UHGV virus genome: UHGV-0123627 | Length of the DNA: 38,813 bases | Reading direction: 5' to 3' (one strand) | Source of the DNA: a virus | In this document: piece after piece, positions 4,224-38,763 of the stretch | Position numbering within the stretch: the first letter of the stretch is position 1 | How the letters are laid out: each line of letters opens with the position of its first letter | The notes under the pieces: generated by a model | The model's input: the letters and a program-made list of their open reading frames with translations, nothing else | The model's database searches: none | What the model was told of the DNA's origin: nothing | Program-made: the position numbers and the translations under genes

Positions 4224-4374
4224 ACCGCCTCCCGTTTATTATTTATCTTCTCAGCCAGCCGCTGTGCTTTCAGTGGATTTCTGATAACAGAAAGGCCGGG
4301 AAATACCCAGCCTCGCTTTGTAACGGAGTAGACGAAAGTGATCGCGCCTACCCGGATATTATCGTGAGGATGCG

Positions 4375-5837: not shown

Positions 5838-5842
5838 CCGTT

Positions 5843-6259
5843 TTATACCTCTGAATCAATATCAACCTGGTGGTGAGCAATGGTTTCAACCATGTACTGG
5901 ATGTGTTCTGCCATGCGCTCCTGAAACTCAACATCGTCATCAAACGCACGGGTAATGGCTTTTTTGCTGGCCCCGTGGCGTTGCAAATGATCGATGCATA
6001 GCGATTCAAACAGGTGCTGGGGCAGGCCTTTTTCCATGTCGTCTGCCAGTTCTGCCTCTTTCTCTTCTCGGGCGATCTGCTGGTAGTGACGCGCCCAGCT
6101 CTGAGCCTCAAGACGATCCTGAATGTAATAAGCGTTCATGGCTGAACTCCTGAAATAGCTGTGAAAATATCGCCCGCGAAATGCCGGGCTGATTAGGAAA
6201 ACAGGAAAGGGGGTTAGTGAATGCTTTTGCTTGATCTCAGTTTCAGTATTAATATCCAT
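5843..6259 (-). CDS. gam: Lambda Gam (RecBCD inhibitor)
   Basis: 138-aa [64 protein letters not shown]... matches lambda Gam (long form). Confidence 0.95.
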
Positions 6260-6357
6260 TTTTTATAAGCGTCGACGGCCTCACGAAACATCTTTTCATC
6301 GCCAATAAAAGTGGCGATAGTGAATTTAGTCTGGATAGCCATAAGTGTTTGATCCAT
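6214..6357 (-). CDS. kil: Kil (host killing / FtsZ inhibitor)
   Basis: Internal ATG of the 89-aa track ORF gives the 47-aa [47 protein letters not shown], matching lambda Kil; overlaps gam and cIII as in lambda. Confidence 0.8.
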
Positions 6358-6490
6358 TTTTTGGGACTCCTGGCTGATTAAGTATGTCGATAAGGCGTTT
6401 CCATCCGTCACGTAATTTACGGGTGATTCGTTCAAGTAAAGATTCGGAAGGGCAGCCAGCAACAGGCCACCCTGCAATGGCATATTGCAT
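6326..6490 (-). CDS. cIII: cIII (FtsH inhibitor, stabilises CII)
   Basis: Manual translation gives the 54-aa [54 protein letters not shown], matching lambda CIII. Below the ORF-track size cutoff. Confidence 0.85.
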   Translation of the reverse strand: MQYAIAGWPVAGCPSESLLERITRKLRDGWKRLIDILNQPGVPKNGSNTYGYPD

Positions 6491-6562
6491 GGTGTGCTCC
6501 TTATTTATACATAACGAAAAACGCCTCGAGTGAAGCGTTATTGGTATGCGGTAACGCCGCGC

Positions 6563-6931
6563 TCAGGCGGCTTTGATAGTCATATCATCTGAATCAAATA
6601 TTCCTGATGTATCGATATCGGTAATTCTTATTCCTTCGCTACCATCCATTGGAGGCCATCCTTCCTGACCATTTCCATCATTCCAGTCGAACTCACACAC
6701 AACACCATATGCATTTAAGTCGCTTGAAATTGCTATAAGCAGAGCATGTTGCGCCAGCATGATTAATACAGCATTTAATACAGAGCCGTGTTTATTGAGT
6801 CGGTATTCAGAGTCTGACCAGAAATTATTAATCTGGTGAAGTTTTTCCTCTGTCATTACGTCATGGTCGATTTCAATTTCTATTGATGCTTTCCAGTCGT
6901 AATCAATGATGTATTTTTTGATGTTTGACAT
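6563..6931 (-). CDS. ea10: Lambda Ea10-like protein
   Basis: 122-aa ORF MSNIKKYIIDYDWKASIEIEIDHDVMTEEKLHQINNFW... at the lambda ea10 position and length. Confidence 0.85.
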   Translation of the reverse strand: MSNIKKYIIDYDWKASIEIEIDHDVMTEEKLHQINNFWSDSEYRLNKHGSVLNAVLIMLAQHALLIAISSDLNAYGVVCEFDWNDGNGQEGWPPMDGSEGIRITDIDTSGIFDSDDMTIKAA

Positions 6932-7134
6932 CTGTTCATATCCTCACAGATAAAAAATCGCCCTCACACTGGAGGGCAAAGAAGATTTCCAATAATCAGA
7001 ACAAGTCGACTCCTGTTTAGTTACGAGCGACATTGCTCCGTGTATTCACTCGTTGGAATGAATACACAGTGCAGTGTTTATTCTGTTATTTATGCCAAAA
7101 ATAAAGGCCACTATCAGGCAGCTTTGTTGTTCTG

Positions 7135-7314
7135 TTAACCAAGTTCTCTGGCAATCATTGCCGTCGTTCGTATTGCCCATTTATCGACATATTTCCCATC
7201 TTCCATTACAGGAAACATTTCTTCAGGCTTAACCATGCATTCCGATTGCAGCTTGCATCCATTGCATCGCTTGAATTGTCCACACCATTGATTTTTATCA
7301 ATAGTCGTAGTCAT
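7135..7314 (-). CDS. ral: Ral (restriction alleviation), C-terminally truncated by an ochre codon at position 60
   Basis: Translation MTTTIDKNQWCGQFKRCNGCKLQSECMVKPEEMFPVMEDGKYVDKWAIRTTAMIARELG then TAA. The in-frame continuation CAG AAC AAC AAA GCT GCC TGA encodes QNNKAA, the C-terminus of 66-aa lambda Ral as remembered. No ORF of 60 aa or more appears in the track here, consistent with truncation. Confidence 0.7.
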   Translation of the reverse strand: MTTTIDKNQWCGQFKRCNGCKLQSECMVKPEEMFPVMEDGKYVDKWAIRTTAMIARELG

Positions 7315-7384
7315 ACGGATAGTCCTGGTATTGTTCCATCACATCCTGAGGATGCTCTTCGAACTCTTCAAATTCTTCTTCCAT
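7298..7384 (-). CDS. Small ORF (28 aa), lambda orf28-like
   Basis: ATG with GAGGTGA upstream; acidic peptide MEEEFEEFEEHPQDVMEQYQDYPYDYDY; overlaps the ral start. Confidence 0.4.
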   Translation of the reverse strand: MEEEFEEFEEHPQDVMEQYQDYPYDYDY

Positions 7385-7438
7385 ATATCACCTCAAATAA
7401 GTTGTTTGCTGCGAAAGTAAATACGCTTAAGTTACCTG

Positions 7439-7576
7439 TTATTTATCCCACCAAGTTCCGTATCTATCTATCCAGTTACACCAATCATCGACACTCCATT
7501 TTGTTGTGTCGCATTTTGGCAACTGGCATGAATATCTACCTTCTTTGTAAAGTCGGCGTTTGACTTTCTTGAGCAT
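7439..7576 (-). CDS. Small Cys-containing ORF (45 aa), hypothetical
   Basis: ATG 8 nt after the N stop with GAGGTG upstream; MLKKVKRRLYKEGRYSCQLPKCDTTKWSVDDWCNWIDRYGTWWDK. Sits where lambda carries sieB. Confidence 0.3.
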   Translation of the reverse strand: MLKKVKRRLYKEGRYSCQLPKCDTTKWSVDDWCNWIDRYGTWWDK

Positions 7577-7584
7577 GGCTCACC

Positions 7585-7917
7585 TCAATCGTAATAAGCT
7601 GGAATTGATTTTCCGCGTTGCTTCTGGCGGCCTGAGCAAGTCACACCCATTTCACAGCGTGGCTTGCTGTACCATGTGCGCTGATTCTTGCGCTCAATAC
7701 GTTGCAGGTTGCTTTCAATCTGTTCGTGGTATTCAGCCAGCACCGTAAGGTCTATCGGATTCAGTGCGCTTTCTACTCGTGATTTCGGTTTGCGATTCAG
7801 CGAGAGAATAGGGCGGTTAACTGGTTTTGCGCTTACCCCAACCAACAGGGGATTTGCTGCTTTCCATTGAGCCTGTTTCTCTGCGCGACGTTCGCGGCGG
7901 CGTGCTTGTGCATCCAT
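7585..7917 (-). CDS. N: Antiterminator N (lambda-like variant)
   Basis: Internal ATG of the track ORF gives MDAQARRRERRAEKQAQWKAANPLLVGVSAKPVNRPILSLNRKPKSRVESALNPIDLTVLAEYH..., with the arginine-rich motif; C-terminus differs from lambda N. Confidence 0.9.
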   Translation of the reverse strand: MDAQARRRERRAEKQAQWKAANPLLVGVSAKPVNRPILSLNRKPKSRVESALNPIDLTVLAEYHEQIESNLQRIERKNQRTWYSKPRCEMGVTCSGRQKQRGKSIPAYYD

Positions 7918-8027
7918 CTGGATTCTCCTGTCAGTTAGCTTTGAGTAACGCGCCGTGATGCTTATCTCCACGGTTGCTGTCTTGCAGCTGCATTTCGCGC
8001 TACTCAAAGCCTTCTGCTTTGAATGCT

Positions 8028-8058
8028 GCCCTTCTTCAGGGCTAAATTTTTAAGAGCG
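8028..8058 (-). promoter_or_regulatory. nutL (boxA CGCTCTTA + boxB GCCCTGAAGAAGGGC)
   Basis: Minus-strand reading gives CGCTCTTAAAAATTTAGCCCTGAAGAAGGGC, the lambda nutL boxA and boxB hairpin. Confidence 0.8.
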
Positions 8059-8090
8059 TCACCTTCATGGTGGTCAGTGCGTCCTGCTGA

Positions 8091-8170
8091 TGGCTTAAAA
8101 TTACAAGAAAGATTGTATGTTGTAAACAAGAAATATTGTAAAAATGGGCGTGAAAAACAAACTCCATTGT
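8091..8170 (-). promoter_or_regulatory. pL promoter region with three 434-type OL operators
   Basis: Three 14-bp ACAA-N6-TTGT sites (about 8103-8116, 8126-8139, 8157-8170); the minus-strand leader ATCAGCAGGACGCACTGACCACCATGAAGGTGACGCTCTTA matches the lambda pL transcript start. Confidence 0.75.
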
Positions 8171-8220
8171 TTTTAAACGTAAAATAGTTTGTTTTTTGGT
8201 TGTCGAAATCGAGGTGAGGA

Positions 8221-9573
<1,353 letters not shown>

Positions 9574-9581
9574 GACATTCC

Positions 9582-9613
9582 CGCTCTTACACATCCCAGC
9601 CCTGAAAAAGGGC
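9582..9613 (+). promoter_or_regulatory. nutR (boxA CGCTCTTA + boxB GCCCTGAAAAAGGGC), followed by the lambda-like tR1 region
   Basis: Direct read of the boxA/boxB motifs; downstream ACCACACCTATGGTGTATGCATTTATTTGCATACATTCAATCAATTG matches the lambda tR1 region. Confidence 0.8.
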
Positions 9614-9692
9614 ATCAAATTAAACCACACCTATGGTGTATGCATTTATTTGCATACATTCAATCAATTGTTATCTAAGGAAATACTTACAT

Positions 9693-9986
9693 ATGGTTCG
9701 TGCAAACAAACGCAACGAGGCTCTACGAATCGAGAGTGCGTTGCTTAACAAAATCGCAATGCTTGGAACTGAGAAGACAGCGGAAGCTGTGGGAGTTGAT
9801 AAGTCGCAGATCAGCAGGTGGAAGAGGGATTGGATTCCAAAGTTCTCAATGCTGCTTGCTGTTCTTGAATGGGGTGTCGTTGACGACGACATGGCTCGAT
9901 TGGCACGACAAGTTGCTTCGATTCTCACCAATAAAAAACGCCCGGCGGCAACCGAGCGTTCTGAACAAATCCAGATGGAATTCTGA
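9693..9986 (+). CDS. cII: CII transcriptional activator
   Basis: 97-aa MVRANKRNEALRIESALLNKIAMLGTEKTAEAVGVDKSQISRWKRDWIPKFSMLLAVLEWGVVDDDMARLARQV... matches lambda CII. Confidence 0.95.
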   Translation: MVRANKRNEALRIESALLNKIAMLGTEKTAEAVGVDKSQISRWKRDWIPKFSMLLAVLEWGVVDDDMARLARQVASILTNKKRPAATERSEQIQMEF

Positions 9987-10018
9987 GGTCATTACTGGAT
10001 CAATCCACAGGAGTAATT

Positions 10019-10180
10019 ATGACAAAACGTCGTAAGAAATACCAGGAAAAAGAAGAGATTCGACACCCTGATTCACCTGAGGGATTAGTGGTAGCCGCAG
10101 CAAATAACAGGGCGTTCGCAGAGCGCCTTGTTGGTGTTTACAGACTAGCCAAAGCAGGAGTGAAACATGGGCGTCGTTAA
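10019..10180 (+). CDS. Small basic ORF (53 aa), hypothetical
   Basis: ATG with AGGAG 6 nt upstream; [53 protein letters not shown]; its 3' end overlaps the O-like start by 14 nt. Confidence 0.3.
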   Translation: MTKRRKKYQEKEEIRHPDSPEGLVVAAANNRAFAERLVGVYRLAKAGVKHGRR

Positions 10181-10988
10181 GTTAGTTGATTACAGGCCTC
10201 AACTGGAGGTCGTGGAGCATCGCGTGGCAGATACCGAAGATGGTTTCATGCGCGTTGCTAACGAGATTACCGACGGTCTGCTGATGGCTGATTTAACCGT
10301 CCGGCAGTTGAAGGTGATGCTCGCTATCATGCGCAAGACATACGGATTCAATAAGCCGATGGATCGACTCACAAACACGCAGATAGCAGCCATGACAGGT
10401 ATTCATCACACTCATGTTTGCGCTGCCAAGCGCCAGCTTATTGAGCGTAAATTCCTCATTGCTGATGGCGTGAAAATCGGAGTGAACAAGGTGGTTTCGC
10501 AGTGGATTAGCCAGGACAGCTTAACATTAGCTAAAACAGCTAATAAAACATTAGCCAAGTCGGCTAATGGGTATAAGCCAAGTCAGCTAAACACAAAAGA
10601 CAATATACAAAAGACAATAAATACAAATACCCCCTTACCCCCTAACGGGGGCGGTGATGGGCAGGTTAAACCTGAACGTCGCAAGGCAGAACGAATCGAC
10701 TACGAATCCTTCCTGAACGCCTACAACACCGAAGTCGGTGACAGACTGCCACACGCTGTTGCGGTCAACGAGAAACGCAAACGCCGCCTGAAGAAAATCA
10801 TCCCGCAACTGAAAACGCCAAACGTGGACGGTTTCAGAGCGTATGTCAGGGCGTTTGTGCATCAGGCCAAGCCGTTTTACTTCGGAGACAACGACACGGG
10901 CTGGACGGCCGATTTTGATTACCTGCTGAGGGAAGACTCGTTAACGGGGGTACGGGAAGGGAAGTTTGCAGACAGGGGGATTGCATGA
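10167..10988 (+). CDS. Replication initiator, O-like (P22 gp18 analogue)
   Basis: 273-aa ORF; N-terminal region (...[30 protein letters not shown]) parallels the lambda O N-domain; iterons lie inside the gene; followed by a DnaB-type helicase as in P22. Confidence 0.8.
10506..10630. repeat. Candidate origin: four about 17-bp iterons plus AT-rich tract inside the O-like gene
   Basis: TTAGCCAGGACAGCTTAA, TTAGCTAAAACAGCTAA, TTAGCCAAGTCGGCTAA, TAAGCCAAGTCAGCTAA at about 20-24 bp spacing, then AAACACAAAAGACAATATACAAAAGACAATAAATACAAATA. Confidence 0.55.
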
Positions 10989-12361
10989 AACAGGATATCG
11001 AAGCGAGCGTTATCGGTGGCCTGCTGATTGGTGGATTAACACCAACCGCCAGCGACGTTCTGGCAACGCTGGAGCCGGAAGCGTTTTCAATTCCGCTCTA
11101 CCGGAAAGCCTTCGAGGTTATCCGCAAGCAGGCGAGAAACAGAAACCTAATCGACGCGCTGATGGTTGCTGAGGCGTGCGGAGAGGAGCATTTCACGTCA
11201 ATCCTGATGACCAGTAAGAACTGCCCGAGTGCCGCAAACCTGAAGGGATACGCCGGAATGGTCGCGGATAACTATCACCGCCGTCTGGTGCTGGAAATCA
11301 TGGATGAAATGCGTGAACCAATTCAGAGCGGAACCATCGATACATCGAGTCAGGCGATGGACGAGCTTGTAAAGCGTCTCTCATCCATCAGAAAGCCCCG
11401 TGACGAGGTTAAACCTGTACGGTTAGGGGAAATCATCACTGACTACACTGACACGCTTGACAGGCGTCTGAGGAACGGAGAAGAGTCAGATACCATGAAG
11501 ACCGGAATCGAAGAACTTGACGCCATCACCGGAGGGATGAACGCAGAAGACCTGGTGATAATCGCTGCTCGTCCTGGTATGGGGAAAACCGAGCTGGCGC
11601 TGAAGATTGCCGAAGGCGTTGCAAGCCGCGTTATTCCTGGTTCTGACGTCCGGCGCGGAGTGTTGATTTTCTCGATGGAAATGAGCGCATTGCAGATTGC
11701 AGAGCGAAGCATTGCCAACGCCGGGAGGATGTCGGTTAGCGTGCTGCGAAATCCTGCATCGATGGATGACGAAGGCTGGGCGCGCGTTGCTAACGGCATG
11801 AGTCAGCTTGCAGATTTGGATGTATGGGTAGTCGATGCCTCGCGGTTATCGGTCGAAGAAATACGCTCAATCGCAGAACGGCACAAACAGGAAAATCCAA
11901 ACCTGTCACTCATCATGGTGGATTATCTTGGTCTGATTGAGAAGCCGAAAGCAGACCGCAACGACCTCGCAATTGCTCACATCTCCGGAAGCCTGAAGGC
12001 GATGGCGAAAGACCTGAAAACGCCCGTTATCTCCCTGAGTCAGCTTTCGCGCGATGTTGAGAAGCGACCAAACAAACGCCCGACAAACGCAGATTTGCGT
12101 GATTCAGGAAGCATTGAACAGGACGCAGACTCAATCATCATGCTCTATCGGGAAGCGGTATATGACGAGAACAGTAGCGCCGCGCCATTTGCTGAAATCA
12201 TTGTGACGAAAAACCGTTTTGGCTCGCTTGGTACGGTTTACCAGCGGTTCTGTAACGGACACTTTGTTGCATGTGACCAGGATGAAGCCAGACAGATTTG
12301 CACAGCATCAAATGCACCTGCTGCGCGTGGCAGACGATATGCACAAGGGGCTGACGTATGA
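10985..12361 (+). CDS. Replicative DNA helicase, DnaB family (P22 gp12-like)
   Basis: 458-aa ORF with Walker A ARPGMGKT and DnaB-like C-terminal domain motifs. Confidence 0.9.
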
Positions 12362-12386
12362 CCATCTACATTACTGAGCTAATAAC

Positions 12387-12419
12387 AGGCCTGCTGGTAA
12401 TCGCAGGCCTTTTTATTTG
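12387..12419 (+). terminator. Intrinsic terminator (tR2-like position, upstream of ninB)
   Basis: AGGCCTGC-TGGTAATC-GCAGGCCT followed by TTTTTATTT. Confidence 0.55.
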
Positions 12420-12434
12420 GGGGAGAGGGAAGTC

Positions 12435-12875
12435 ATGAAAAAACTAACCTTTGAAATTCGATCTCCAGCACATCAGCAAAACGCTATTCACGCAGTACAG
12501 CAAATCCTTCCAGACCCAACCAAACCAATCGTAGTAACCATTCAGGAACGCAACCGCAGCTTAGACCAAAACAGGAAGCTATGGGCCTGCTTAGGTGACG
12601 TCTCTCGTCAGGTTGAATGGCATGGTCGCTGGCTGGATGCAGAAAGCTGGAAGTGTGTGTTTACCGCAGCCTTAAAGCAGCAGGACGTTGTTCCTAACCT
12701 TGCCGGGAATGGCTTTGTGGTAATAGGCCAGTCAACCAGCAGGATGCGTGTAGGCGAATTTGCGGAGCTATTAGAGCTTATACAGGCATTCGGTACAGAG
12801 CGTGGCGTTAAGTGGTCAGACGAAGCTCGACTGGCTCTGGAGTGGAAAGCAAGATGGGGAGACAGGGCGGCATGA
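12435..12875 (+). CDS. ninB: NinB (Orf recombination mediator)
   Basis: [66 protein letters not shown]... matches lambda NinB. Confidence 0.9.
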
Positions 12876-13048
12876 GACGACAGCGACGAAGCATCACCGA
12901 CATAATCTGCGAAAACTGCAAATACCTTCCAACGAAACGCTCCAGAAATAAACGCAAGCCAATCCCAAAAGAATCTGACGTAAAAACCTTCAACTACACG
13001 GCTCACCTGTGGGATATCCGGTGGCTAAGACATCGTGCGAGGAAATGA
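12872..13048 (+). CDS. ninE: NinE-family small protein
   Basis: 58-aa [58 protein letters not shown]; start overlaps the ninB stop (ATGA). The ninD versus ninE naming is from memory. Confidence 0.65.
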
Positions 13049-13434
13049 CAATGGATTATTCACAGTTAAGTGATTTTGAAATTAACGTGGCGGTATTCGA
13101 AGCCATTCATAACGGATCACCGGATTACAAAGAAGGTGAGAATGGCGATATGGTGTTTGTCTCATTTGAGGGAGACATTGTAAACGGAGACGCAGTTGAA
13201 GTAGAAGTTGAGCGCGGATCCTTTAACCCATGCGTAAACCCAGCAGACGCATGGCCGATTATCACTGAAAACAACATCAGCATAATTTTAGACAATCCCT
13301 CAATGCCGTGCGCTACAGACAACGCAAGGGACTTGTTTGATGATGCCGGACCGAATGTTGGTGTTGCATATGACAATCCACTCCGTGCTGCCATGATTGT
13401 CTTTCTCATGATGCAGGACGCCAATAATGCTTAG
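13045..13434 (+). CDS. Hypothetical nin-region protein (about 128 aa)
   Basis: ATG overlapping the ninE stop (alternative ATG at 13051 with better SD spacing); acidic protein with no confident family assignment. Confidence 0.5.
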
Positions 13435-16300: not shown

Positions 16301-16504
16301 ATGTACCGTATGGACAAAATCAGAGAATGGTTCAGTTACAGCTTCGGAGGACTGACTGCGATGGGTGGCATTCTCTCCCTGAATGACTGGGCTGTCATCA
16401 TTGGTATTCTTTGTACTGTCGGCACATTTGGCATCAACTGGTACTACAAGCGCAAAGAGCGCGAGGACAGATTGAATGGCAATGTCACCGGCACTACGAA
16501 ATAG
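16301..16504 (+). CDS. Holin (small two-TMD class, likely pinholin) with dual-start motif
   Basis: 67-aa [60 protein letters not shown]...; Met1 and Met4 separated by a basic residue; directly upstream of a SAR endolysin. Confidence 0.8.
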
Positions 16505-16979
16505 CGTAATAGCGGCGATAAGTGGCGGGGCTATTGCTATAGCATCTGTGTTAATCACTGGACCAAGTGGTAACGATGGCCTGGAAGGTGTCAGCTACAT
16601 ACCATACAAAGATATTGTTGGTGTATGGACTGTATGTCACGGGCATACAGGAAAAGACATCATGCTCGGTAAAACGTATACCAAAGCAGAATGCAAAGCC
16701 CTCCTGAATAAAGACCTTGCCACGGTCGCCAGACAAATTAACCCGTACATCAAAGTCGATATACCGGAAACAACGCGCGGCGCTCTTTATTCGTTCGTCT
16801 ATAACGTGGGCGCAGGCAATTTCAGAACATCGACGCTTCTTCGCAAAATCAACCAGGGCGATATCAAGGGCGCATGTGACCAGCTACGTCGCTGGACATA
16901 CGCTGGCGGTAAGCAATGGAAAGGGCTGATGACTCGCCGTGAGATTGAGCGTGAAGTCTGTTTGTGGGGGCAGCAATGA
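16476..16979 (+). CDS. SAR endolysin (lysozyme, phage 21 R / P1 Lyz type)
   Basis: N-terminal Gly/Ala-rich weakly hydrophobic signal-anchor-release segment ([19 protein letters not shown]) followed by a lysozyme-like domain; GAGGA 8 nt before the ATG. Confidence 0.9.
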
Positions 16980-17413
16980 GCAGAGTAACTGCGATTATCT
17001 CCGCTCTGGTTATCTGCATCATCGTCTGCCTGTCATGGGCTGTTAATCATTACCGTGATAACGCAATCGCCTACAAAGAGCAGCGCGATAAGGCCGCATC
17101 CACAATTGCTGACATGCAGAAGCGTCAACGTGATGTAGCAGAACTTGACGCCAGATACACAAAGGAGCTTGCTGATGCTAACGCGACTATCGAAAGTCTC
17201 CGTGCTGATGTTTCTGCTGGTCGTAAGCGCCTGCAAGTCGCCGCCACCTGTGCAAAGTCAACGACCAGAGCCAGCGGCATGGGCGATGGAGAAAGCCCAG
17301 GACTTACAGCAGATGCTGAACTCAATTATTACCGTCTCCGAAGTGGAATCGACAAGATAACCGCGCAGGTTAACTACCTGCAGGAATACATCAGGACGCA
17401 ATGCCTGAAATGA
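16976..17413 (+). CDS. Rz: Rz i-spanin
   Basis: [30 protein letters not shown]... matches the lambda Rz N-terminus; start overlaps the endolysin stop (ATGA). Confidence 0.9.
17175..17360 (+). CDS. Rz1: Rz1 o-spanin (lipoprotein), embedded in the +1 frame of Rz
   Basis: [20 protein letters not shown] then a Pro-rich segment; lipobox LVVSAC; wholly inside Rz. Confidence 0.75.
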
Positions 17414-25288: not shown

Positions 25289-25474
25289 ATGGATCGCATG
25301 AGTGTATTCCTTGCCGCAGATAACGAATCCGGACATGTACAGGCCGTTATCGCAGAAAAAGACTTCCAGTTTTTCGAAAAGTTGGGCTTTGTTGCCTCAG
25401 TTGATGAATTGAAACCGACCAGTAAGCGAGGTCGTAAGGCGGCAGACAATGGCAACAGTACTGACAAAGGGTGA
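25289..25474 (+). CDS. Small hypothetical protein (61 aa)
   Basis: ATG with AAGGAAA upstream, between coat and the gp4 homologue. Confidence 0.4.
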   Translation: MDRMSVFLAADNESGHVQAVIAEKDFQFFEKLGFVASVDELKPTSKRGRKAADNGNSTDKG

Positions 25475-25931
25475 GATCGTCCTTTTTGCGCTTCGTAAGT
25501 TTGCTATTGCTTCTAATGCATCGCTGACTGATGTTGAGCCGCAATCAATTGAAGATGGTGTAAATGATCTGGAAGATATGATGTCCGAGTGGATGATTAA
25601 CCCCGGCGACATTGGTTACGCTTTCGCAACTGGAGATGAGCAGCCATTACCAGATGATGAGTCAGGTCTTCCAAGAAAATACAAACACGCAGTAGGCTAT
25701 CAGTTATTGCTGAGAATGCTATCTGATTACAGCCTTGAACCAACTCCGCAAGTTCTCAGTAACGCCCAACGCTCATATGATGCCTTGATGACCGACACTC
25801 TGGTTGTTCCTTCAATGCGACGACGTGGAGATTTTCCTGTAGGACAGGGTAATAAATATGACGTGTTTACATCTGACCGATATTATCCAGGCGATCTCCC
25901 TCTGATTGATGGCGATATCCCAAACGCATAG
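25449..25931 (+). CDS. Head-to-tail adaptor (P22 gp4-like)
   Basis: 160-aa; ...[28 protein letters not shown]... aligns with the P22 gp4 motif [28 protein letters not shown] as remembered. Confidence 0.85.
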   Translation: [160 protein letters not shown]

Positions 25932-29365: not shown

Positions 29366-30697
29366 ATGGCTACTTGGCAAGGAACAAACGGCGGATTGTT
29401 GGCTGGTATCGGCGGCGTCAACTCAAACGCTCCGAGCGTAAATGACATCGGCAATACGCTTCAGCTTATCAGGCAGAACAATGATATTGAGCGTTCAGGC
29501 GCTAACAATGTTGGGCTGACTGCTTTGCAAGGTCTTTCAGGTATTGCGGGTGTTTTTCAGCAGGAAAAGCAGGCTCAGCGGCAGAAAGAATTTCAGCAGG
29601 CGTACGCTAATGCTTATGCGTCTGGTGATCGCGGTGCTTTGCGTCAGTTGGCTACTCAATATCCAGACCAGATTGAATCCGTTCGTAAAGGCATGGGATT
29701 CATTGATGAAGAGCAGCGTAATTCTATCGGCACCTTAGCGGCTGGCGCACGCCTTGCGTCATCGTCTCCAGAAGCAATGCAATCATGGCTGCAAAACAAC
29801 GCCGGTGAGTTAGCTCGTGTTGGCGTTAATCCTCATGACGTCGCTCAGATGTACCAACAGAACCCGCGGCAGTTCGGCGAATTTGTCGATCACCTGGGGA
29901 TGAACAGTCTCGGGCCCGAAAAATACTTTGACCTACAGGATAAAATGCAGGGTCGCCAGGTTACCATGCGCGGTCAGGATCTGGATTCGCAAACCGCCGC
30001 TCGGAATCAGGCAATCACAATGCGCGGACAAGATATCCAGGCGAATTTAGGTCAGCAGCGCATTAATCTGGACGCAGAAACAAACCGCATTAACAACGAA
30101 AATAAGCGCCTTGACCGGATGCTATCAGCAGAAACTAACGACCTGAAGCGCCAGGAAATACAGAGCCGCATAGCAGCCAACAACCAGCAGTTGCAGCAGA
30201 AGCAGCAAGCGCTAAATGATGGCTACAAAGACGGCATCAACACCCTCACAACCAGCATGTTCACTCTGAACGATATCGTTAGTTCTCCTTCACTTAAGAG
30301 CATTACAGGCTTACGTGGAGTAATCCCCAACGTTCCAGGCTCACAGGCTGCAGACACTCAGGCACGACTTGATACCTTTAAATCCCAAGCATACCTGACA
30401 GCGGTTCAGGCCATGCGAGGCATGGGCGCACTTTCTGATGCCGAGGGCAAAAAGCTCGACCAGGCTGTTGGTTCGCTGCAGAACTCACAGAGCGAGGAGT
30501 CCTTTCGTCGCAACGCTGGCGTCATCCTGAACACGCTCAACCAGAAGCGTAATGAGGCGGTTGGTAAGTACGTTCAGCAAAACGGTATCAAGCGAGTGGA
30601 AGCGCCTCAGGCTTCTATAGATTACCTGAAGCAGCACCCCGAGCTGTCAATCGACTTCATTAATCGCTACGGATATCTTCCATCTTTGGGGCAGTAA
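29366..30697 (+). CDS. Ejection/internal protein (P22 gp20 position)
   Basis: 443-aa Gln-rich protein; assigned by gene order. Confidence 0.7.
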   Translation: MATWQGTNGGLLAGIGGVNSNAPSVNDIGNTLQLIRQNNDIERSGANNVGLTALQGLSGIAGVFQQEKQAQRQKEFQQAYANAYASGDRGALRQLATQYPDQIESVRKGMGFIDEEQRNSIGTLAAGARLASSSPEAMQSWLQNNAGELARVGVNPHDVAQMYQQNPRQFGEFVDHLGMNSLGPEKYFDLQDKMQGRQVTMRGQDLDSQTAARNQAITMRGQDIQANLGQQRINLDAETNRINNENKRLDRMLSAETNDLKRQEIQSRIAANNQQLQQKQQALNDGYKDGINTLTTSMFTLNDIVSSPSLKSITGLRGVIPNVPGSQAADTQARLDTFKSQAYLTAVQAMRGMGALSDAEGKKLDQAVGSLQNSQSEESFRRNAGVILNTLNQKRNEAVGKYVQQNGIKRVEAPQASIDYLKQHPELSIDFINRYGYLPSLGQ

Positions 30698-33091
30698 ATG
30701 GCTAATTACCGTGATTTGTTAGAGCAGGCTGGCGCACGTTACGGTGTGCCAGAAGGGTTGATGACTGCACTGGGTGCCAAGGAGTCTTCTTACAACCCTG
30801 CCGCAGTAAGCTCCGCCGGGGCTGTAGGATTGACTCAGGTCATGCCTGGGACATGGCGTGATATGGGTTATACCGATGAGCAAATGCAAAACCCCGAATA
30901 TCAGGCTGACGCTGGCGCGCGCTATCTGGCAAAGATGTACCAGCAGTTTGGTAACTGGCGTGACGCTCTTCAGGCTTATCACGACGGTCCCGGCAACGTT
31001 ATGAAGGCAAAGCGTGGTGAATATACGCCAGGACCTGAAGGCCGCGGTTACGTTGATGATCGCTTTGCTCAATGGGCTGGTGACCCGGTGACAGACTCAA
31101 CAGTCGAACAGCGCGCCACCTCTGCAAAGGTACATCCTCAGCAAGACCCTAACAACCCGTTTGCACAACTGGAAGTACAGTCATCCGAACAAGTATCGGC
31201 ATCAGGTGTGCAGTCAGACCCAAATAATCCATTTGCTCAGATTGAGCAGCAGGCAGCCAGTCAGCAGCCACCTCAACCCGTAAGTTCTGTCGCACCGAAA
31301 CCTGTTCAGCAGCAAGGCGGAATAATGTCTGACCTTGGTAATGGACTTGCTGAAACCGGGCGCGGCTTACTACAGGCAGGAATCAACGTAGCGAACATAC
31401 CTGCTGAACTCACTGATGCTGTAACAAGCGCGGCGGCTTGGGCTGGCGGTAAACTCGGCATTGGCGATGGTACATATCAACCAGCGCCACGAGTAACAAC
31501 GCAGGGATTAGAGCAGGACTTTGGCCTTCAGCAAGGCGCGCTGACTCCACAAACGACAGAGGGAAGGGTATTTGCTGAAGCATTGCCTTACCTCACTCCT
31601 GCTGGCATTGAGAGAGCGGCAACACAGGCACCAACACTCGCTGGTAGAATCGCTCAGGGTGCAACTCGCCTTCTCGCTGAAAACGCAGTCGGGTCACTTG
31701 CTGCAAATAGTGCGAAAGATGATGCGGAAGCACTCGCTACCGATTTAGGTGTTGGCGTTCTGGCTGGCGGCGCTATTAACGCTGCCGGACGTGGATTAGG
31801 TGCTGCTTATCGTGGTGTTCGTGGTTCGATAGCACCAGAAGCGCAGCAGGCTATCAGATTTGCAGAGCGTGAAGGAGTTCCTCTGCACACCACAGACCTG
31901 TTACAACCAACCTCCCGCATCGGAAAAATGGCGCAGACTACAGCAGAAAATATCCCTCTGGCTGGCACAAGCGGAATGAGAGCAACGCAACAGGAAGCGA
32001 GAAGCCAGTTGGTGCAGAGATTTGCCGATAAATTCGGTGAGTATGATCCAGCGGTTGTTATTGACAGCCTTAAAGCGAAAACATCAGGAATTCGTCGTGC
32101 CGCCGGTAATCGACTGGAGCAGGTTCAGAATGCTATGGCTGGAGTAAACATTCAGCCTGCGCGAGCAATTCAGCAGATTGATACAGAAATATCTAACCTG
32201 CAGAAGCTTGGTAAGGTTGCTGATAACGAGACAATTTCAAAACTTCAGTCATATCGTGATGAGCTTGTTCGCAATGCTGGCCCTGATGGCCCGGTAAATC
32301 TGGATTTGAAGCAATTAAGCGATCTGCGCAGCCAGTTCAGAATGGACGTGAAGGGTGAGCGACCAGTGTTACCAAACCGTTCCGATGCCGCCATACAGCG
32401 CGTTTACAAGGCGATGACCGACGATATCAATGGTGCCATTGGTCAGAATCTTGGCAATGATACTCTTCGTAAATATCAGCAGGCCAATTCCGTCTACGCT
32501 GACGAAGCGGCGAAACTAAAGAATACCAGGCTGAAGAATGTTCTCATGAAAGGCGACCTGACGCCGGAAGTTGTCAACAACATGCTATTCAGCAAGAACA
32601 AATCTGAAATTAAGACGCTGTATAACTCAGTTGGTCGTGTTGGCAGGGCGCAAATGCGCAATGGCATCATTGGAAAGGCGATGGAGAAATCTGGCGGATC
32701 CCCTGACCAGTTCCTTCGGCAGCTTAACATCCTGCAAAACCAGACTGGCATCACATTTAAGGGGCAGGATGCTGATTATCTGAAAGGATTGAAAAATTAC
32801 CTTCAGTCCACTCAGCAGGCAGCAAAAGCGGCAGTAACAACACCAACAGGGCAGCAAACCATCCCGTTCATTATCGGGTATGGGACGGCAATGAACCCGG
32901 CGACAACTGGCGCAGCGGTAAGCTACGGACTTCTTACTCGCGCCTATGAGAGCGAACCATTCAGAAATGCAATGCTCCGAATGGCAAACACCCCACGCGG
33001 ATCGACAGCGTTTGAGAAAGCCATGCAGCAAGCGCAAAAAGCGATTAATGCACTGACGCAGGGTGCGAAGTCTGATTCGTTATCAGAATAG
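30698..33091 (+). CDS. Ejection/internal protein (P22 gp16 position) with N-terminal lytic transglycosylase domain
   Basis: 797-aa; N-terminal about 130 aa carry an SLT-like motif (AKESSYNPAAVSSAGAVGLTQVMPGTW ... AYHDGPGN); the remainder is Ala/Gly/Gln-rich. Confidence 0.75.
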   Translation: MANYRDLLEQAGARYGVPEGLMTALGAKESSYNPAAVSSAGAVGLTQVMPGTWRDMGYTDEQMQNPEYQADAGARYLAKMYQQFGNWRDALQAYHDGPGNVMKAKRGEYTPGPEGRGYVDDRFAQWAGDPVTDSTVEQRATSAKVHPQQDPNNPFAQLEVQSSEQVSASGVQSDPNNPFAQIEQQAASQQPPQPVSSVAPKPVQQQGGIMSDLGNGLAETGRGLLQAGINVANIPAELTDAVTSAAAWAGGKLGIGDGTYQPAPRVTTQGLEQDFGLQQGALTPQTTEGRVFAEALPYLTPAGIERAATQAPTLAGRIAQGATRLLAENAVGSLAANSAKDDAEALATDLGVGVLAGGAINAAGRGLGAAYRGVRGSIAPEAQQAIRFAEREGVPLHTTDLLQPTSRIGKMAQTTAENIPLAGTSGMRATQQEARSQLVQRFADKFGEYDPAVVIDSLKAKTSGIRRAAGNRLEQVQNAMAGVNIQPARAIQQIDTEISNLQKLGKVADNETISKLQSYRDELVRNAGPDGPVNLDLKQLSDLRSQFRMDVKGERPVLPNRSDAAIQRVYKAMTDDINGAIGQNLGNDTLRKYQQANSVYADEAAKLKNTRLKNVLMKGDLTPEVVNNMLFSKNKSEIKTLYNSVGRVGRAQMRNGIIGKAMEKSGGSPDQFLRQLNILQNQTGITFKGQDADYLKGLKNYLQSTQQAAKAAVTTPTGQQTIPFIIGYGTAMNPATTGAAVSYGLLTRAYESEPFRNAMLRMANTPRGSTAFEKAMQQAQKAINALTQGAKSDSLSE

Positions 33092-33181
33092 CCTTTCAAA
33101 CACCAGGAACGTGCAAAAACCAAATATGTAGAACGCGAGGTTTATCGTATCCCTCTGCATAGGCGATACCTTTGCTGATTG

Positions 33182-33667
33182 TTATCTGATGCTACTGCTA
33201 CTGTTGCATGTTACCGTGTTTCCAAATCCTGAATTGCAGTTTGTATATGTGTCAACGCGTGTTGGGTAAGGTTGAGTTATAACAGGCTGGCGCGCTTTTT
33301 GCTCGATCGCTTGCATTGTGTTTACAGCCTGATAATTCAATAAAGCCTGCTGGAATGCTTGGCTTTGTGCTATTTGTTGGGCTTGTTCTTGGCTTTGTAA
33401 TTGAACATAAAGATTCTGAAGCTCAAGTCTTGCCTGTGCGTCACTTATCTTGCCTTCATCGACGCCTTGCCCGAGCATCTTTGCAGCAAGGACATACAGC
33501 TTAGGTGTTGGTGCTGATGCCATGCGTGAGTCGTTCTTCACACTGGCATCAAGGCAATTAGCCATATCGCTAAGCTTTTGATAGCGTTGTTCGCAACTTG
33601 CTTGATAGTCACTTACTTTTGCGCATCCAACCAGCAGAAGCGGGATAATTAACAGTGATTTTTTCAT
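33182..33667 (-). CDS. Predicted lipoprotein (161 aa), hypothetical
   Basis: MKKSLLIIPLLLVGCAK with lipobox LLVGC; Gln-rich C-terminal part; AAGGAG upstream. Confidence 0.7.
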   Translation of the reverse strand: MKKSLLIIPLLLVGCAKVSDYQASCEQRYQKLSDMANCLDASVKNDSRMASAPTPKLYVLAAKMLGQGVDEGKISDAQARLELQNLYVQLQSQEQAQQIAQSQAFQQALLNYQAVNTMQAIEQKARQPVITQPYPTRVDTYTNCNSGFGNTVTCNSSSSIR

Positions 33668-33737
33668 ATGGTTAACTCTCCTTAGTTTTTCACAGGATAT
33701 CATGAAGGCAATGCCATTTTAGCCGGAAACTAGATTT

Positions 33738-34004
33738 CTATGTTTCCTTTTTATTATTGCTATACATGGTCTTAAGCGTTTCAAAAACCATTTTCTTAAC
33801 CATATCAGATTGTTGCTCTGCCATACGCTCTGCATCGTCAATGTAAACGGATGCAGAGCTTTGTTTAGCCAATGATTCTTCAATCGCTGCAATTATCTCT
33901 GAGTTCAGCGATCTGTTATTCATCTTCGCACGCTGTTTAATTTTCGCGTGGAGTTCATGCGGAAGTCTCAAGTGAAACTGCGCCTCGTCGTATTTGCTGT
34001 ACAT
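33738..34004 (-). CDS. mnt: Mnt-like ribbon-helix-helix repressor
   Basis: ...SLNSEIIAAIEESLAKQSSASVYIDDAERMAEQQSDMVKKMVFETLKTMY... parallels P22 Mnt (RSMNSELLQIVQDAL...NDAERLADEQSELVKKMVFDTLKDLYKK) as remembered. Confidence 0.8.
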   Translation of the reverse strand: MYSKYDEAQFHLRLPHELHAKIKQRAKMNNRSLNSEIIAAIEESLAKQSSASVYIDDAERMAEQQSDMVKKMVFETLKTMYSNNKKET

Positions 34005-34125
34005 CCTTGATGCCTCACCAGTTGGGTGGAATGGCATCGTAACCTACTGGATAAATACTCAATAGTACCATTTCGGTATGCAATCAAATCATGGTTGCAT
34101 CATATCATTCGTCTGGAGCAATGAA

Positions 34126-35931
34126 ATGTCAGATATCACCGCAAATGTTGTGGTAAGCATGCCTTCTCAACTCTTCACTATGGCTCGTTCTTTTAAAGCT
34201 GTAGCCAATGGCAAAATTTATATCGGTAAAATTGACACTGACCCGGTAAATCCTGAAAACCAGATTCAGGTTTATATAGAGAACGAAGACGGTTCTCACG
34301 TTCCTGTTTCGCAACCAATCATCATTAATGCTGCTGGTTACCCCGTATATAACGGACAGATTACCAAGTTCGTAACTGTACAGAATCACTCCATGGCTGT
34401 ATATGATGCGTATGGCGCACAACAATTCTATTATCCTGATCTACTGAAATATTCTCCAGATCAGTTAAGGGCTGAGCTTTCTGGCCCTGATGGCGCATCT
34501 CTGGTTGGTTATGGAGATGAAACTGTCAAAGATGCTCTTGACAATAATGCCCATAAAATAGATACGTTGAGAAGTGACTTGGCTGCTGATGATGGCTTTC
34601 GCCACATAGGCAACTTTCTCAATTTAGATGCGCTGAGGGATTCAATACCATTAGTTGCTGGAGAAATTGTCTATGTAGCTTCAGCAGCAAGTGCTACAGC
34701 AACTGAAAAACATTATGGCGGTGGTTACTTCCAGTCTTTCGACAATAGCACATCACAGATTGCCGATGATGGAGGGATTGTTATTGTTCCAAGTTCAGGT
34801 AAATTTGCTTGGAGGAGGGTTGTTGATGGTGAGATATGGGTAGAGTATTTTGGAGCAAAACCGATAAATGATTTTGACAACGCCTCTGCAATATCAAAGG
34901 CTTTATCATATGGATATGATAATAATACCCCTATTCATTTTATGTCAGGTGAATATCTAACCTCCGAAAGTCCTGTTGTAAAGTCATGGTCTGGAATCAT
35001 AGGTCAAGGTCAAAATAAGACGATTATCTCTAAAACAACAAATAACGCGAACACCATAATTTCTGGAGTCTCAGTGGATGCACTGCTGATTATTCTTCCA
35101 AAAAAATTCGTTGTAGATGGTGTTGAGAGTGATAACTATGCTACAGGCGTAGAGATACAAGGTGTTACTTTAAGACGTCATGAAATTATAGATAGAAATA
35201 ATCAACCAACATATGGAATATACTCTCCTTACATGGCTTCAAGTTTGTTAAGAGACTTGCGTGTAGAATGTGGGTATTATGGTTTTTGGGGTGAAGATTG
35301 CTTCTCAAATATATTTGAACGGTGCGGTTTTTTAGGTTTGGCTATTGGGCAGTTTACTGGTTTTTATTTAGGTAAAGTGAGGGATGGTATATATAACCTT
35401 TCTGGAACAAGTAATCTTCTAGACCAGGTGGGAGTTGTTAATTATCAAATTGGTTTTGAAATTGACGCTCAACAGTACACAACACTAAATTGTTGTACTG
35501 CTGATTCTATATTTCCTATGTCTGGTACTACTGAGACAATATCAAGAGCTTATCTTTTCAATAACCCTCATGGAATAACAATGAATAGTTGTGGAAGTGA
35601 GAATGTAAAGGGGGAAAGAATAGCAGTAGTCCAAGCTTCGCCATCTATTTATGACGGTACAATGGTGATAAATGGATGTCAATTTCAGGTTGTCCCAGCA
35701 AATCCACCAATTTCTTTGCCAATATTTAGGTTTGAGAACAATGGCACAAATTCATTTAATTTGTACATAACAGTAAATTCATCTAACTTTCGTCGAGATT
35801 CTTCTACAACACCAAACCTAATTCAAGGATATGTTTATGGTGGTACTGGCGCTGTCACAGTCGTAAGATTCATAGCATCTGTTCTTGAAGATCCGATAAC
35901 GGCAGGAAATGTAGATGTTAAACTAATTTAG
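34126..35931 (+). CDS. Tailspike protein (P22 gp9-like head-binding domain, divergent receptor-binding domain)
   Basis: [79 protein letters not shown]... matches the P22 tailspike N-terminal domain; the rest is dissimilar; GGAG 7 nt upstream. Confidence 0.9.
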
Positions 35932-36027: not shown

Positions 36028-37488
36028 TTATTTACATAAAGAATCATCAAAACTCACCATTACATTCTCATTATCACGATAAATTTTAATATCATTAGAT
36101 GAATAAATTAGTGTTGATTTACAATAGTCCTTCATGAACATAGATACTTCTTTACTGGAAAAATCAGGATAATTTTGATTTACTCCTCTAATCTTGAGGT
36201 ATACATGAGAGCCATACCAGTTATAGAAGTAGTCGAGTACTATTGTTTTGAATAGTGGATAATTTAATTCTGAATTAAGTAGTATAGGGGATTTTGGTGA
36301 ACTACCATTAAACATAACATTAACACTATTTTCGGGTATGTTTTTTAACGCTAGCCCAATAATTTCAGCAATGTATTTATTTTTATCATCTTGTGCTCGC
36401 AAAGCATTTCCATATGAATAAAAAAGAGTAATTATATAAAAAAGGAATATTAAAAATATACCGTTGACAATTCTTGTGTTATTTATTCCCAAATATAAAA
36501 GGGTGAAGATGAATAAAAAAAGACCATTAAACCCAATATAAACCCTTGCAAAAGTTGTTAGAGTGTTTTCAAGGAGAAGTAATGAAATCATTGATGATAT
36601 AAAAGTCAAAGGTAATGATAACACTGCCATCAAAGATAAAAAAACAGCAGCATTACACTTGTGTTTTTTAATGTAAACAAAAACCAATTTAATGGCAAAT
36701 GCAAATGATACAATAAAACTACCAATTAATAATTCACTCCCATGCTCAGGGATTATATTTCTAGTGTAGAAATCATAATACGCAATAAAGTTCTTATGAA
36801 TTACATCTATAATATTTGTGGCAACTCCTGGGTGATTTTGACTATTGTCATTAACATGAGTTAACGGCAGTACAACCCTCATATAGATAACAGCGCCAAC
36901 CAATACTTCGATAATTCGAAATGCAATTGACTTTATTATGTGTGTTGGCTCTTTATTATTCTTTATGTTAACAAACATTTCTATAGAGATTAATATAAAA
37001 ACTATATTAATAGATGCTTGGTAAAATGAAAATAAGATAACTATAAAGCTAGAATGTAAAATAAATGAAATTACCGTGTTTTTATAGTTTAGACAAATAA
37101 ATGCAAATGCAAAAAATATCGAAGCTGAGATGGTTAAGCTATCAAACCTGTATGATAGAGGTTCGATTATAAATGGACTTAATAAAAATGACAACGGTAA
37201 AAAAAGATAATGATTATCTGAATTAAATAATTTAATGTGAAATAGATAAAATGAAATAGACAATAGCAAACATGCTATTATTAGAGGCAATGGAGCCAAG
37301 TCAGTTAGATGATTGTTAAAATTAAGAATAATCATTAATCTATCTGATAATGGTCTACCATCAATTCCCCAATAAGTTACGCCGCTCATTGCTCTGCTCA
37401 TATCATCGCTGTAGTAAACATTTGCAATTATAATTGGGAGCGCAAGTAAGAATGTGATAAATAAGTAAATCTTAATGTTATTTTTCAT
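36028..37488 (-). CDS. Serotype-specific O-antigen glucosyltransferase (GtrC-type polytopic membrane protein)
   Basis: 486-aa very hydrophobic multi-TM protein in AT-rich DNA, directly downstream of gtrB in the same operon. Confidence 0.75.
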
Positions 37489-38404
37489 TTTTAGAACTCT
37501 TTAAAAGATATTTCGGCCTTTGCTTTGTTTCAATATAAATTCGTCCAATGTACTCACCAAGAACACCAATACCAATGAGTTGGATACCACCAAGGAAAAG
37601 TATAGATACTAGCAGGGATGGATAACCTCTAACCGGGTTTCCAAACGCCAGAGTGTCCAGAATCATCCATGCGCCATATGTAAATGCTAAGCCAGCGACG
37701 AGAAGGCCGATGTAAGTCCACATACGTAGCGGAAAAGTCGAGAAGCTCGTAATTCCCTCAAGAGCAAGATTCCACAACTTCCATCCGTTGAACTTGGTAC
37801 TGCCAGCAACACGTTCTGCGCGGGCATAATCAACGATATCAGTGCGACCACCAACCCAACTCAAAACACCCTTCATGAAAAGGTTGCGTTCTGGCATGAG
37901 CTTAATGTTCTCTACGACTTCACGAGACATCAGACGGAAATCACCAACATTTTCCTCGATCTGCGGATTGCTGATTTTATTGTGAAGCTTATAGAACCAC
38001 TCGGCGGTTTTCCTCTTCAGTCTGCCATCCGTTGAGCGGTCAGATCGTTTAGCAAGCACCATATCAGCACCTGCCTGCCACTTTTCAATAAGATGAGGAA
38101 TAACCTCAATCGGGTCTTGCAGGTCAACATCAATTGGAATCACGGCATCGCCAGTTGCATGGTCTAACCCTGCAAACAATGCTGGTTCTTTACCAAAGTT
38201 GCGTGTAAATGACAGCGGAACAACTAGCGGATCATAAACAGCCAGAGCGTTAATGATTGACTCCGTAGAGTCTTTGCTACCATCATTTATAAAAACAATT
38301 TCTACTTCATATGGCTTCAACTCTTCGAATTCACGTACCGTTTTATAAAAAATTGGTATCGCTTCTTCTTCATTGAAGACAGGAACTACAAGAGATATCT
38401 TCAT
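37478..38404 (-). CDS. gtrB: Bactoprenol glucosyltransferase GtrB (GT2 family)
   Basis: 308-aa [47 protein letters not shown]... with two C-terminal TM segments. Confidence 0.95.
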
Positions 38405-38763
38405 TTCGCATCCCTAAAGACAATGAACTTTGAATAGACGAAACCGCACACCAGGCTGATGGCGGAGAAAGTGATAAGGGTGACCATCGGGGGAAGGGCG
38501 CATCTATCAGCAGCCCACCCGACGACAACACTCAATGTTCCCATGAATCCCACGTATAACAAGTAACGCATCGTTGTAGTCGATGCCTTGAATGTGAATT
38601 TTGCATTCGCGAAGAAGCTAAAACTCACAGCCACAACGAAACCTGCGAAGTTTGCAAGAGCTTGGTTTGTATGCGCGGCATAGATACAAACACCAAAAAC
38701 CACCCAGTGTATAAGGGTGTTCAGCACACCAATCGAGGTGTACTTTGCAAATAGCTTTAACAT
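38401..38763 (-). CDS. gtrA: GtrA flippase-like small membrane protein
   Basis: 120-aa four-TM protein [31 protein letters not shown]... ending in ...FIVFRDAK; first gene of the gtr operon. Confidence 0.9.

Follow-up and report, generated by a model that had tools for sequence, protein, structure and literature searches.

In P22, gp16 is a packaged protein that leaves the particle ahead of the DNA (PMC10461980). In T7, gp16 starts with a transglycosylase, which is followed by a 'molecular tape' binding the periplasmic-tube protein gp15, and this transglycosylase is required for genome entry when the murein is highly cross-linked (PMC8954989). According to the same review of ejection proteins from 2022, P22-like phages feature no T7-style core stack and are without a transglycosylase domain (PMC8954989). 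The virus genome UHGV-0123627, a stretch of 38,813 nucleotides (nt) which is referred to here as the window and to which all positions apply unless another genome is named, does not fit the latter description. Its gp16-position gene (30698..33091, + strand), an ATG-initiated open reading frame (ORF) of 797 amino acids (aa) plus stop, encodes an ejection (DNA transfer) protein, the largest of three, which, judged by homology, is a three-part fusion of an SLT domain, a flexible Q/P-rich linker and a body of the Sf6 gp13 type. As the best overall explanation, to which a probability of about 0.75 is assigned, this SLT-fused gp16 would be packaged and ejected and would cut murein at entry, with its N-terminal part being a mobile cassette whose motifs probably dock onto gp20.

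The window holds a P22-like (Lederbergvirus) prophage with an Sf6-type virion module; its early region is lambda-like, its virion genes resemble those of Sf6, and a gtrABC cassette is present. The ORF is assigned to the gp16 position because the genes directly upstream carry the Pfam domains DUF2824, P22_gp7 and Inj_translocase, resulting in the gene order gp14, gp7, gp20 and then the gp16-position ORF, with the tailspike gene located downstream. It begins immediately past the TAA stop of the gp20 homologue (29366..30697, +), a periplasmic tube/translocase ejection protein of 443 aa (Pfam Inj_translocase at aa 10-225, E=1e-67; PHROG 2534). According to the ORF list, the neighbouring virion genes are all intact. 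PHROG 770, a family of 'DNA transfer proteins', covers aa 108-797 of the gp16-position protein (E=8.5e-240), and phrog_21143 covers aa 1-207. By homology and gene position, the protein is thus classed as a member of the P22 gp16-type ejection proteins. An earlier note on this DNA, made from the sequence alone, had placed a 797-aa ORF last among the ejection genes, which is borne out by the ORF list and the Pfam synteny; the length of about 609 aa that it gave for P22 gp16 was likewise correct, and that protein is devoid of an SLT domain.

The N-Terminal SLT Domain

The N-terminal domain (aa 1-125; 30698..31072, +) is assigned to the SLT family (Pfam PF01464; family-1 lytic transglycosylases, GH23). 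The Pfam match comprises aa 7-110 with E=3e-25 and 88.5 bits compared to a gathering cut-off of 21.3, which is far beyond chance. Searching the PDB with phmmer matched aa 4-102 to the catalytic domain of Slt70 from E. coli (PDB 1QSA), with E29-S30 falling on the catalytic pair E478-S479; the codon of the putative catalytic glutamate E29, as aligned to E478, is located at 30782-30784 (+). Family-1 lytic transglycosylases are characterized by a GLMQ-like motif, an AYNxG-like motif and a conserved tyrosine. All of these are present in the window protein, which features the E-S pair, GLTQ (44-47), AYHDG (93-97) and Y118, the first three being part of the longer strings GAKESSYNP (E-S at 29-30), GLTQVMPGTW (44-53) and AYHDGPGN (93-100). 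An SLT-type motif within the first approximately 130 residues had already been pointed out in the earlier note, and the strings quoted there were indeed found; the profile search now adds a highly significant match with intact catalytic residues.

An alignment was built from the window protein, a Klebsiella aerogenes homologue, a metagenomic homologue, IME_EC2 gp26, Skarpretter gp17 and T7 gp16. Throughout this alignment, including T7 gp16, the residues E29, S30, G44, A93, Y94, G97 and Y118 are invariant. In a comparison of homologues from four genera, no part of the protein is better conserved than the SLT domain, with a mean pairwise identity of 89% compared to 80% in the body and 65% in the linker, and every catalytic motif is retained. 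As indicated by these sequence comparisons, the SLT domain is under purifying selection; it appears intact and real, and the transglycosylase is probably functional. No hydrophobic, signal-like segment was seen at the N-terminus of the gp16-position protein.

The likeness to T7 gp16 (internal virion protein D) consists in an N-terminal SLT domain, placed on the largest ejected protein and featuring the same catalytic Glu-Ser pair, and in an extended segment that follows this domain in both. Nevertheless, only the SLT region can be aligned, with 24% identity between the window protein and T7 gp16 aa 1-240. The match to phrog_342 is confined to aa 3-190, and the remaining approximately 670 aa of the window protein are of the P22 gp16 type. 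In PHROG and PDB sequence searches, no homology was detected to the rest of T7 gp16 (approximately 1100 aa, inner-membrane insertion and cytoplasmic hub). By analogy, the window protein would thus work like T7 gp16-N, yet it does not belong to the T7 gp16 family.

The Linker and the Sf6-Type Body

The linker (aa 126-208; 31073..31321, +) is rich in Q (19%), P (13%) and S (12%) and otherwise variable, and it passes into the Sf6-type body at about aa 205-210. A six-frame regex scan located two copies of a motif in it, DPNNPFAQLE (aa 150-159; 31145..31174, +) and DPNNPFAQIE (aa 174-183; 31217..31246, +), and revealed no further DPNNPFAQ-type motif outside the gp16-position gene. In the form DPxNPFAQ(L/I)E, both copies are kept in all SLT-bearing homologues (E. 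coli, Cronobacter, Klebsiella aerogenes, Kosakonia) despite the divergence of the linker. In addition, the motif aligns with N(V/I)FDQF of IME_EC2 and Skarpretter.

The body (aa 209-797; 31322..33088, +) is ascribed by homology to the Sf6 gp13 type and to Pfam PF26808 (Phage_P22_gp16), which is also recorded among the precomputed hits on 99%-identical proteins, and it is predicted to be mostly helical. Whole-protein alignment gives the gp16-position protein an identity of 89% to Sf6 gp13, with the matching part at aa 209-797, and of 35% to P22 gp16; at the nt level, the identity to Sf6 gene 13 amounts to approximately 94% from query position 676 onward. Compared to the SLT-less cluster P0119 of 665-aa proteins, 571 of the 589 residues of the body are identical. 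The gp16-body family comprises 1131 representatives at 50% identity. A sequence search of the PDB with aa 130-797 gave no match, leaving the body without a solved relative. Sf6 gp13 (665 aa) and P22 gp16 (609 aa) thus share the gene position and a homologous body with the window protein, but they possess neither the SLT domain nor the NPFAQ motifs, and their N-termini of approximately 75 aa are of other types, paired with other gp20 tails.

Database entries also include deletion fusions in which the gp16 body is joined to the N-terminal part of the gp26 tail needle (P0111), of gp7 (P0114) or of NinG (P0120). These probably derive from decayed prophages. All three are joined at or near a QQ(Q)G(G/F)(M/I)SDLG junction, which suggests a recombination hot spot.

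Distribution and Previous Annotation

Within Lederbergvirus, the SLT-bearing gp16 is a minority cassette. The SLT module was found in 10 of 145 (approximately 7%) P22-like phage records carrying a gp7 homologue, with at least 99% identity, and these ten records represent the seven phages IME10, phiKp_30, ECO26.1 3-1, Sf101, APC_JM3.2, Huey and Dewey. The module is present in 70 of 5426 complete E. coli genomes, with at least 99% nt identity in 68 of them and with the whole gene in 52; as a base for comparison, a gp7 homologue occurs in 819-1245 of the 5426 genomes. Likewise, when the gp16-body family is reduced to representatives at 50% identity, only about six of the best 150 feature an N-terminal SLT domain. 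The same full-length architecture is found in one cluster of 1295 member sequences, and SLT domain plus body are conserved and have co-diverged in Cronobacter, Klebsiella aerogenes, Kosakonia and Enterobacter.

Pfam gave no SLT match for P22 gp16, Sf6 gp13 and VSe13 gp16, and a hidden Markov model (HMM) built from the SLT alignment matched neither HK620 gp16 (722 aa) nor CUS-3 gp16 (719 aa). The comparison with Sf6, HK620 and CUS-3 hence shows that the domain is not standard in all close relatives, and the assessment of the earlier note that such an arrangement is not canonical for P22 holds for these five phages. It has to be qualified by the fact that in Murrayvirus and Skarprettervirus, the sister genera, the gp16-position protein normally bears an SLT domain. 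Their gp16-position proteins IME_EC2 gp26 (Murrayvirus, 1007 aa) and Skarpretter gp17 (Skarprettervirus, 977 aa) bear SLT domains with 55-63% identity and resemble the window protein further in the N(V/I)FDQF copies and in a gp20 tail ending with ...YG(Y/F)LPEG; they differ from it in having one motif copy before and one after the SLT domain and in their length of approximately 980-1010 aa.

The SLT-plus-linker module of the window is 99.4-100% nt identical to that of IME10, Sf101, Huey and Dewey, with the protein being labelled 'DNA transfer protein' in the latter two, and to that of the E. coli prophage proteins. IME10 and phiKp_30 share the whole window gene (94-96% nt identity), whereas Sf101, Huey, Dewey and APC_JM3.2 carry the module on a different, longer body (911 aa), the start of which resembles P22 gp16. 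In IME10, the 797-aa gp16 ORF (NC_019501, 31064-33457; 96% nt and 99% protein identity to the window gene) is unannotated in the RefSeq as well as the GenBank record, though it is intact.

At the annotation level, the SLT-gp16 arrangement is already catalogued and thus not new, while it is uncharacterised. Proteins with 99% identity are labelled 'lytic transglycosylase domain-containing protein' by the Prokaryotic Genome Annotation Pipeline (PGAP), Sf101 gp13 is annotated as 'transglycosylase' (GenBank KJ832078), and the combination of SLT and Phage_P22_gp16 is already recorded by Pfam among its precomputed hits. In the literature searched, which did not extend to the survey of Casjens and Thuman-Commike (2011), no paper was found that discusses or tests an SLT domain on a P22-type gp16; the paper on phage E212 merely lists a 'transglycosylase'. 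As the SLT domain is present on some P22-like gp16 proteins, the generalisation of the 2022 review to P22-like phages (PMC8954989) is incorrect and needs to be corrected. P22-like phages are accordingly not uniformly devoid of a predicted ejected muralytic activity, which draws the P22 and T7 ejectosome designs closer together. Moreover, natural versions with and without the SLT domain, approximately 89% identical (window gene vs. Sf6 gp13), offer a clean system for the contribution of a virion-borne transglycosylase to entry.

The name 'lytic transglycosylase domain-containing protein' is also attached (GenBank/PGAP) to SLT-less gp16 proteins of the Sf6 type, i.e., VSe13 gp16 (locus positions 2722-4719) and the 665-aa cluster P0119 (2252 members). 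These were considered as a second SLT type and rejected, as Pfam finds no SLT domain in them; the name is ascribed to annotation carry-over from SLT-bearing relatives.

Co-inheritance With the gp20 C-Terminus

The SLT domain and the linker form a mosaic block together with the C-terminal half of gp20 (29800..31320, +; boundaries approximate), which moves as a unit. In a sliding-window comparison, the sequence from approximately 29800, inside gp20, to approximately 31320 is 97-100% nt identical to IME10 and Sf101 and approximately 60% identical to Sf6. Further downstream, past 31400, the identity to Sf6 and IME10 amounts to approximately 94%, and the sequence is unrelated to that of Sf101. This pattern of identity implies that the cassette has been combined with two different gp16 bodies. 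Among the E. coli genomes, the gp20 C-terminal type is found in 69 and the SLT module in 70, with both being adjacent wherever a genome is in both lists. Likewise, both are found together in the same six phages.

The gp20 alignment delimits a C-terminal tail, EAPQASIDYLKQHPELSIDFINRYGYLPSLGQ (aa 412-443; 30599..30694, +), which is proposed as the partner of the gp16 linker motifs and has the consensus APQxxIDYLxxxPxxxxxFxxxYG(Y/F)LP. The tail is present on all gp20 partners of SLT-bearing gp16 proteins, among them Skarpretter gp18, with 31% identity, and the gp20 of IME_EC2, which is split, and it is absent from P22, Sf6, VSe13, HK620 and CUS-3. That the tail tracks the SLT domain itself was considered and rejected, as Aeromonas phage 4_4512 and Shewanella phage ZP9 lack an SLT domain and possess both tail and motifs, the gp16-position protein of each starting with MANPFDQFD and containing a second NPFDQFD copy. 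Similarly, none of 84 motif-bearing proteins from IMG/VR contains an SLT domain. Since tail and motifs occur without SLT, the tail tracks the motifs and not the enzyme.

This pairing extends far beyond the SLT-bearing phages. Across 87 loci, which comprise 80 obtained through gp20 homology and the named phages, the tail and the motif are both present in 46 and both missing in 41, with no discordant case. Scanning IMG/VR for KYGYLPEG gave 53 matches, 47 of them true ORF C-termini; within 100 codons downstream of these, two motif copies were found in 45 and one copy in two cases. The converse scan for MANPFDQF gave 90 matches, and 86 of the 88 assessable ones have an upstream ORF ending with L..NP....F..KYG, followed by either YLPEG or AGAAAKILG. 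Thus, in more than 130 diverse IMG/VR contigs and in P22-like phages, a tandem N-x-F-(D/A)-Q-(F/L/I) motif near the N-terminus pairs almost perfectly with an upstream ...YLxxNPxxxxFxxKYG... tail, these counts being uncorrected for shared ancestry.

The proteins encoded downstream of the tails in IMG/VR range from 432 to 2335 aa. A polyvalent protein of 2335 aa (contig 3300037502_000383, locus positions 6170-13174) starts with the MANPFDQFD motif pair and carries ddrB-ParB, ART-PolyVal, GNAT and LPD38 domains; the motif pair hence also heads effector-laden ejected proteins. In the metagenomes, nine tail-bearing upstream proteins and most of the large downstream proteins gave no Pfam match, and some of the upstream proteins still match the C-terminal half of a gp20 HMM. 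As the upstream proteins are mostly beyond recognition by Pfam, tail and motifs are more conserved than the rest of either protein. Some SLT-gp16 proteins (P0099, aa ~185-285; P0107) contain after the motifs an unannotated module of approximately 95 aa, GLIxxGNIDIHNRPxVxNxDGSISTVRS...GKHLGxF...A..YAExLH. It recurs in gp32 of Aeromonas phage 4_4512 (aa ~25-120; gene at locus positions 4593-7091), where it is located between the two motif copies, in the place of the SLT domain. Pfam and PDB sequence searches with this module gave no match.

A second type of pair is seen in Sf6, VSe13, HK620 (29795-33312) and CUS-3 (928-4436), where a gp20 tail ending with ...SSLWGD always goes along with a gp16 N-terminus of the form MAKAWKDV(I/V)ASPQYQAL.... 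The gp16 bodies of phages of this type have a reported identity of only 22-26% (PMC10461980). Furthermore, P22 hybrids with Sf6 gene 16 or gene 20 alone are non-infectious, and hybrids with both together are viable (PMC10461980). The co-occurrence, the second pair type, the incompatibility in P22 hybrids and the binding of the T7 tape to gp15 together suggest a docking interface between the gp20 tail and the gp16 motifs. Tentatively, and with somewhat less than even confidence, it is proposed that both are the halves of a widespread, undescribed docking code which would couple the tube protein to the large ejected protein, with cargo plugged in around the motifs and the pairs swapped as a cassette. 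Cargo domains may be situated before, between or after the motif copies, and might include the SLT domain, the module of approximately 95 aa in Aeromonas phage 4_4512, and the ADP-ribosyltransferase, ParB and GNAT domains of the 2335-aa protein. P22-like phages would then feature at least three pair types, namely the YGYLP tail with NPFxQ motifs, SSLWGD with MAKAWKDV, and the P22 type. Literature searches on the motif strings gave nothing relevant, and no description of the pairing was found in them. The pairing is a more novel lead than the SLT domain. If true, such an interface would provide a first sequence-level handle on the assembly of the P22-type conduit, and it would account for the incompatibility known from mismatched gp16 and gp20 and for the need of their matching in infectivity.

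Proposed Role and Alternative Explanations

The proposed mechanism builds on features that were established directly, i.e., the ORF, the domain with its catalytic residues and its distribution, the mosaic boundaries and the co-occurrence of motifs and tails. From homology to P22 gp16, we infer that the capsid contains the protein and that its release precedes that of the DNA. As it has no signal peptide, SLT-gp16 would reach the periplasm only through expulsion via the tail at infection, before the DNA. There, the SLT domain would cut glycan strands locally, and the resulting opening in the murein would allow the gp20 tube and the gp16 inner-membrane conduit to cross the murein layer. A cell-wall-degrading activity delivered with the ejection proteins, as suggested by the earlier note, would thus be exerted at entry. 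The SLT-plus-linker module is a mobile cassette, which moves along with the gp20 C-terminal half and is found attached to at least two gp16 bodies that are unrelated, and its linker motifs would probably dock onto the gp20 C-terminal tail. The same module is carried by the functional phages IME10, Sf101, Huey, Dewey, APC_JM3.2 and phiKp_30.

Several points weigh against this explanation. P22, Sf6, HK620 and CUS-3 infect without an SLT domain, which is consequently not essential for the P22-type mechanism. Moreover, P22 gp4 is listed as a virion-associated lysin (PMC5380687), and a homologue of this reported muralytic protein is encoded in the window (P22_Tail-4, Pfam PF11650, E=3e-74; 25449..25931, +). 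Like the SLT domain, gp4 is a candidate murein-degrading virion component, but it is a neck/adaptor protein without the SLT fold and is not ejected. Full-length structure prediction with AlphaFold 2, based on a shallow alignment of 16 sequences, was too poor for a fold search, with a mean predicted local distance difference test (pLDDT) score of 45 and a predicted template modelling score of 0.26. In this low-confidence model, pLDDT is about 50-73 over most of aa 1-100, drops to approximately 30 at aa 31-50 and stays below 50 in the linker. Support for the goose-lysozyme-like SLT fold therefore comes from sequence alone. The literature searched contained no enzymatic, virion-proteomic or genetic results on the SLT-gp16 subfamily. 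Regarding the docking, the argument starts from the co-occurrence and co-inheritance of adjacent segments, which linkage and shared ancestry could partly explain, and the pairing of tails and motifs would agree equally well with a common third partner, such as the portal, a scaffold or a host protein. Because relatives infect without the SLT domain and a gp4 homologue is present, the domain would probably be an accessory that widens the conditions or hosts for entry.

Among the alternatives, it seems improbable that the SLT domain is retained in a non-catalytic function, binding peptidoglycan as an anchor or forming a structural 'wing' on the trans-periplasmic conduit. Such a function would agree with the ability of close relatives to manage without the domain and with the N-terminal domain of T7 gp16, which is also structural and forms the gp15 tunnel's wings (PMC8954989). 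However, an inert domain would be expected to lose its catalytic motifs, whereas the Glu-Ser pair and all family-1 motifs are strictly kept in homologues of 72-99% identity and in the 47%-identical proteins of the sister genera. Still less credence is given to an activity of the domain late in infection, in lysis and release, or in the lysogen. SLT domains do occur in some endolysins, and the PHROG matches include families labelled 'endolysin', but the window contains its own endolysin (16476-16979, +; PHROG 7, E=6e-69) and an Rz-like spanin (16964-17413, +; PHROG 13, E=9e-72) in a canonical lysis cassette, so that the gp16 SLT domain is not considered a lysis enzyme. In addition, the domain belongs covalently to a late structural protein whose gene is located between gp20 and the tailspike, it shows no signal peptide or feature of holin-dependent export, and its architecture parallels that of T7 gp16.

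That prophage decay or assembly produced the fusion as an artefact, with a deletion joining an unrelated transglycosylase gene to gp16, is hardly credible, even though the gp26, gp7 and NinG fusions described above demonstrate that deletion fusions of the gp16 body exist in databases. The same full-length architecture occurs in the plaque-forming phages IME10 and phiKp_30, and the module stands on another body in Sf101, Huey and Dewey. Together with the whole gene in 52 complete E. coli genomes, the cluster of 1295 members, the diverged forms in Cronobacter, Klebsiella and Kosakonia and the intact adjoining virion genes, this distribution has effectively refuted an artefact.

Further Features of the Locus

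Directly downstream of the gp16-position gene and antisense to it, an ORF of 173 aa (33182-33703, -) occupies the position of sieA in P22. Its product has a lipoprotein-type signal (LLLVGC) and matches phrog_6067, to which no function is assigned; it may be a superinfection-exclusion or moron gene. This ORF is followed by an Arc/Mnt-like repressor gene (33738-34037, -). The listed start of the tailspike ORF (34078-35931, +) lies 16 codons upstream of the conserved head-binding N-terminus. As the PHROG alignments of the tailspike open at aa 17 (MSDITANVV...), the ATG at 34126 is probably the true start. Finally, an O-antigen modification cassette resembling gtrA/gtrB/gtrC (36028-38763, -) has a G+C content of 29-36% compared to approximately 48% in the prophage, and such a very low value is typical for a horizontally acquired serotype-conversion module.

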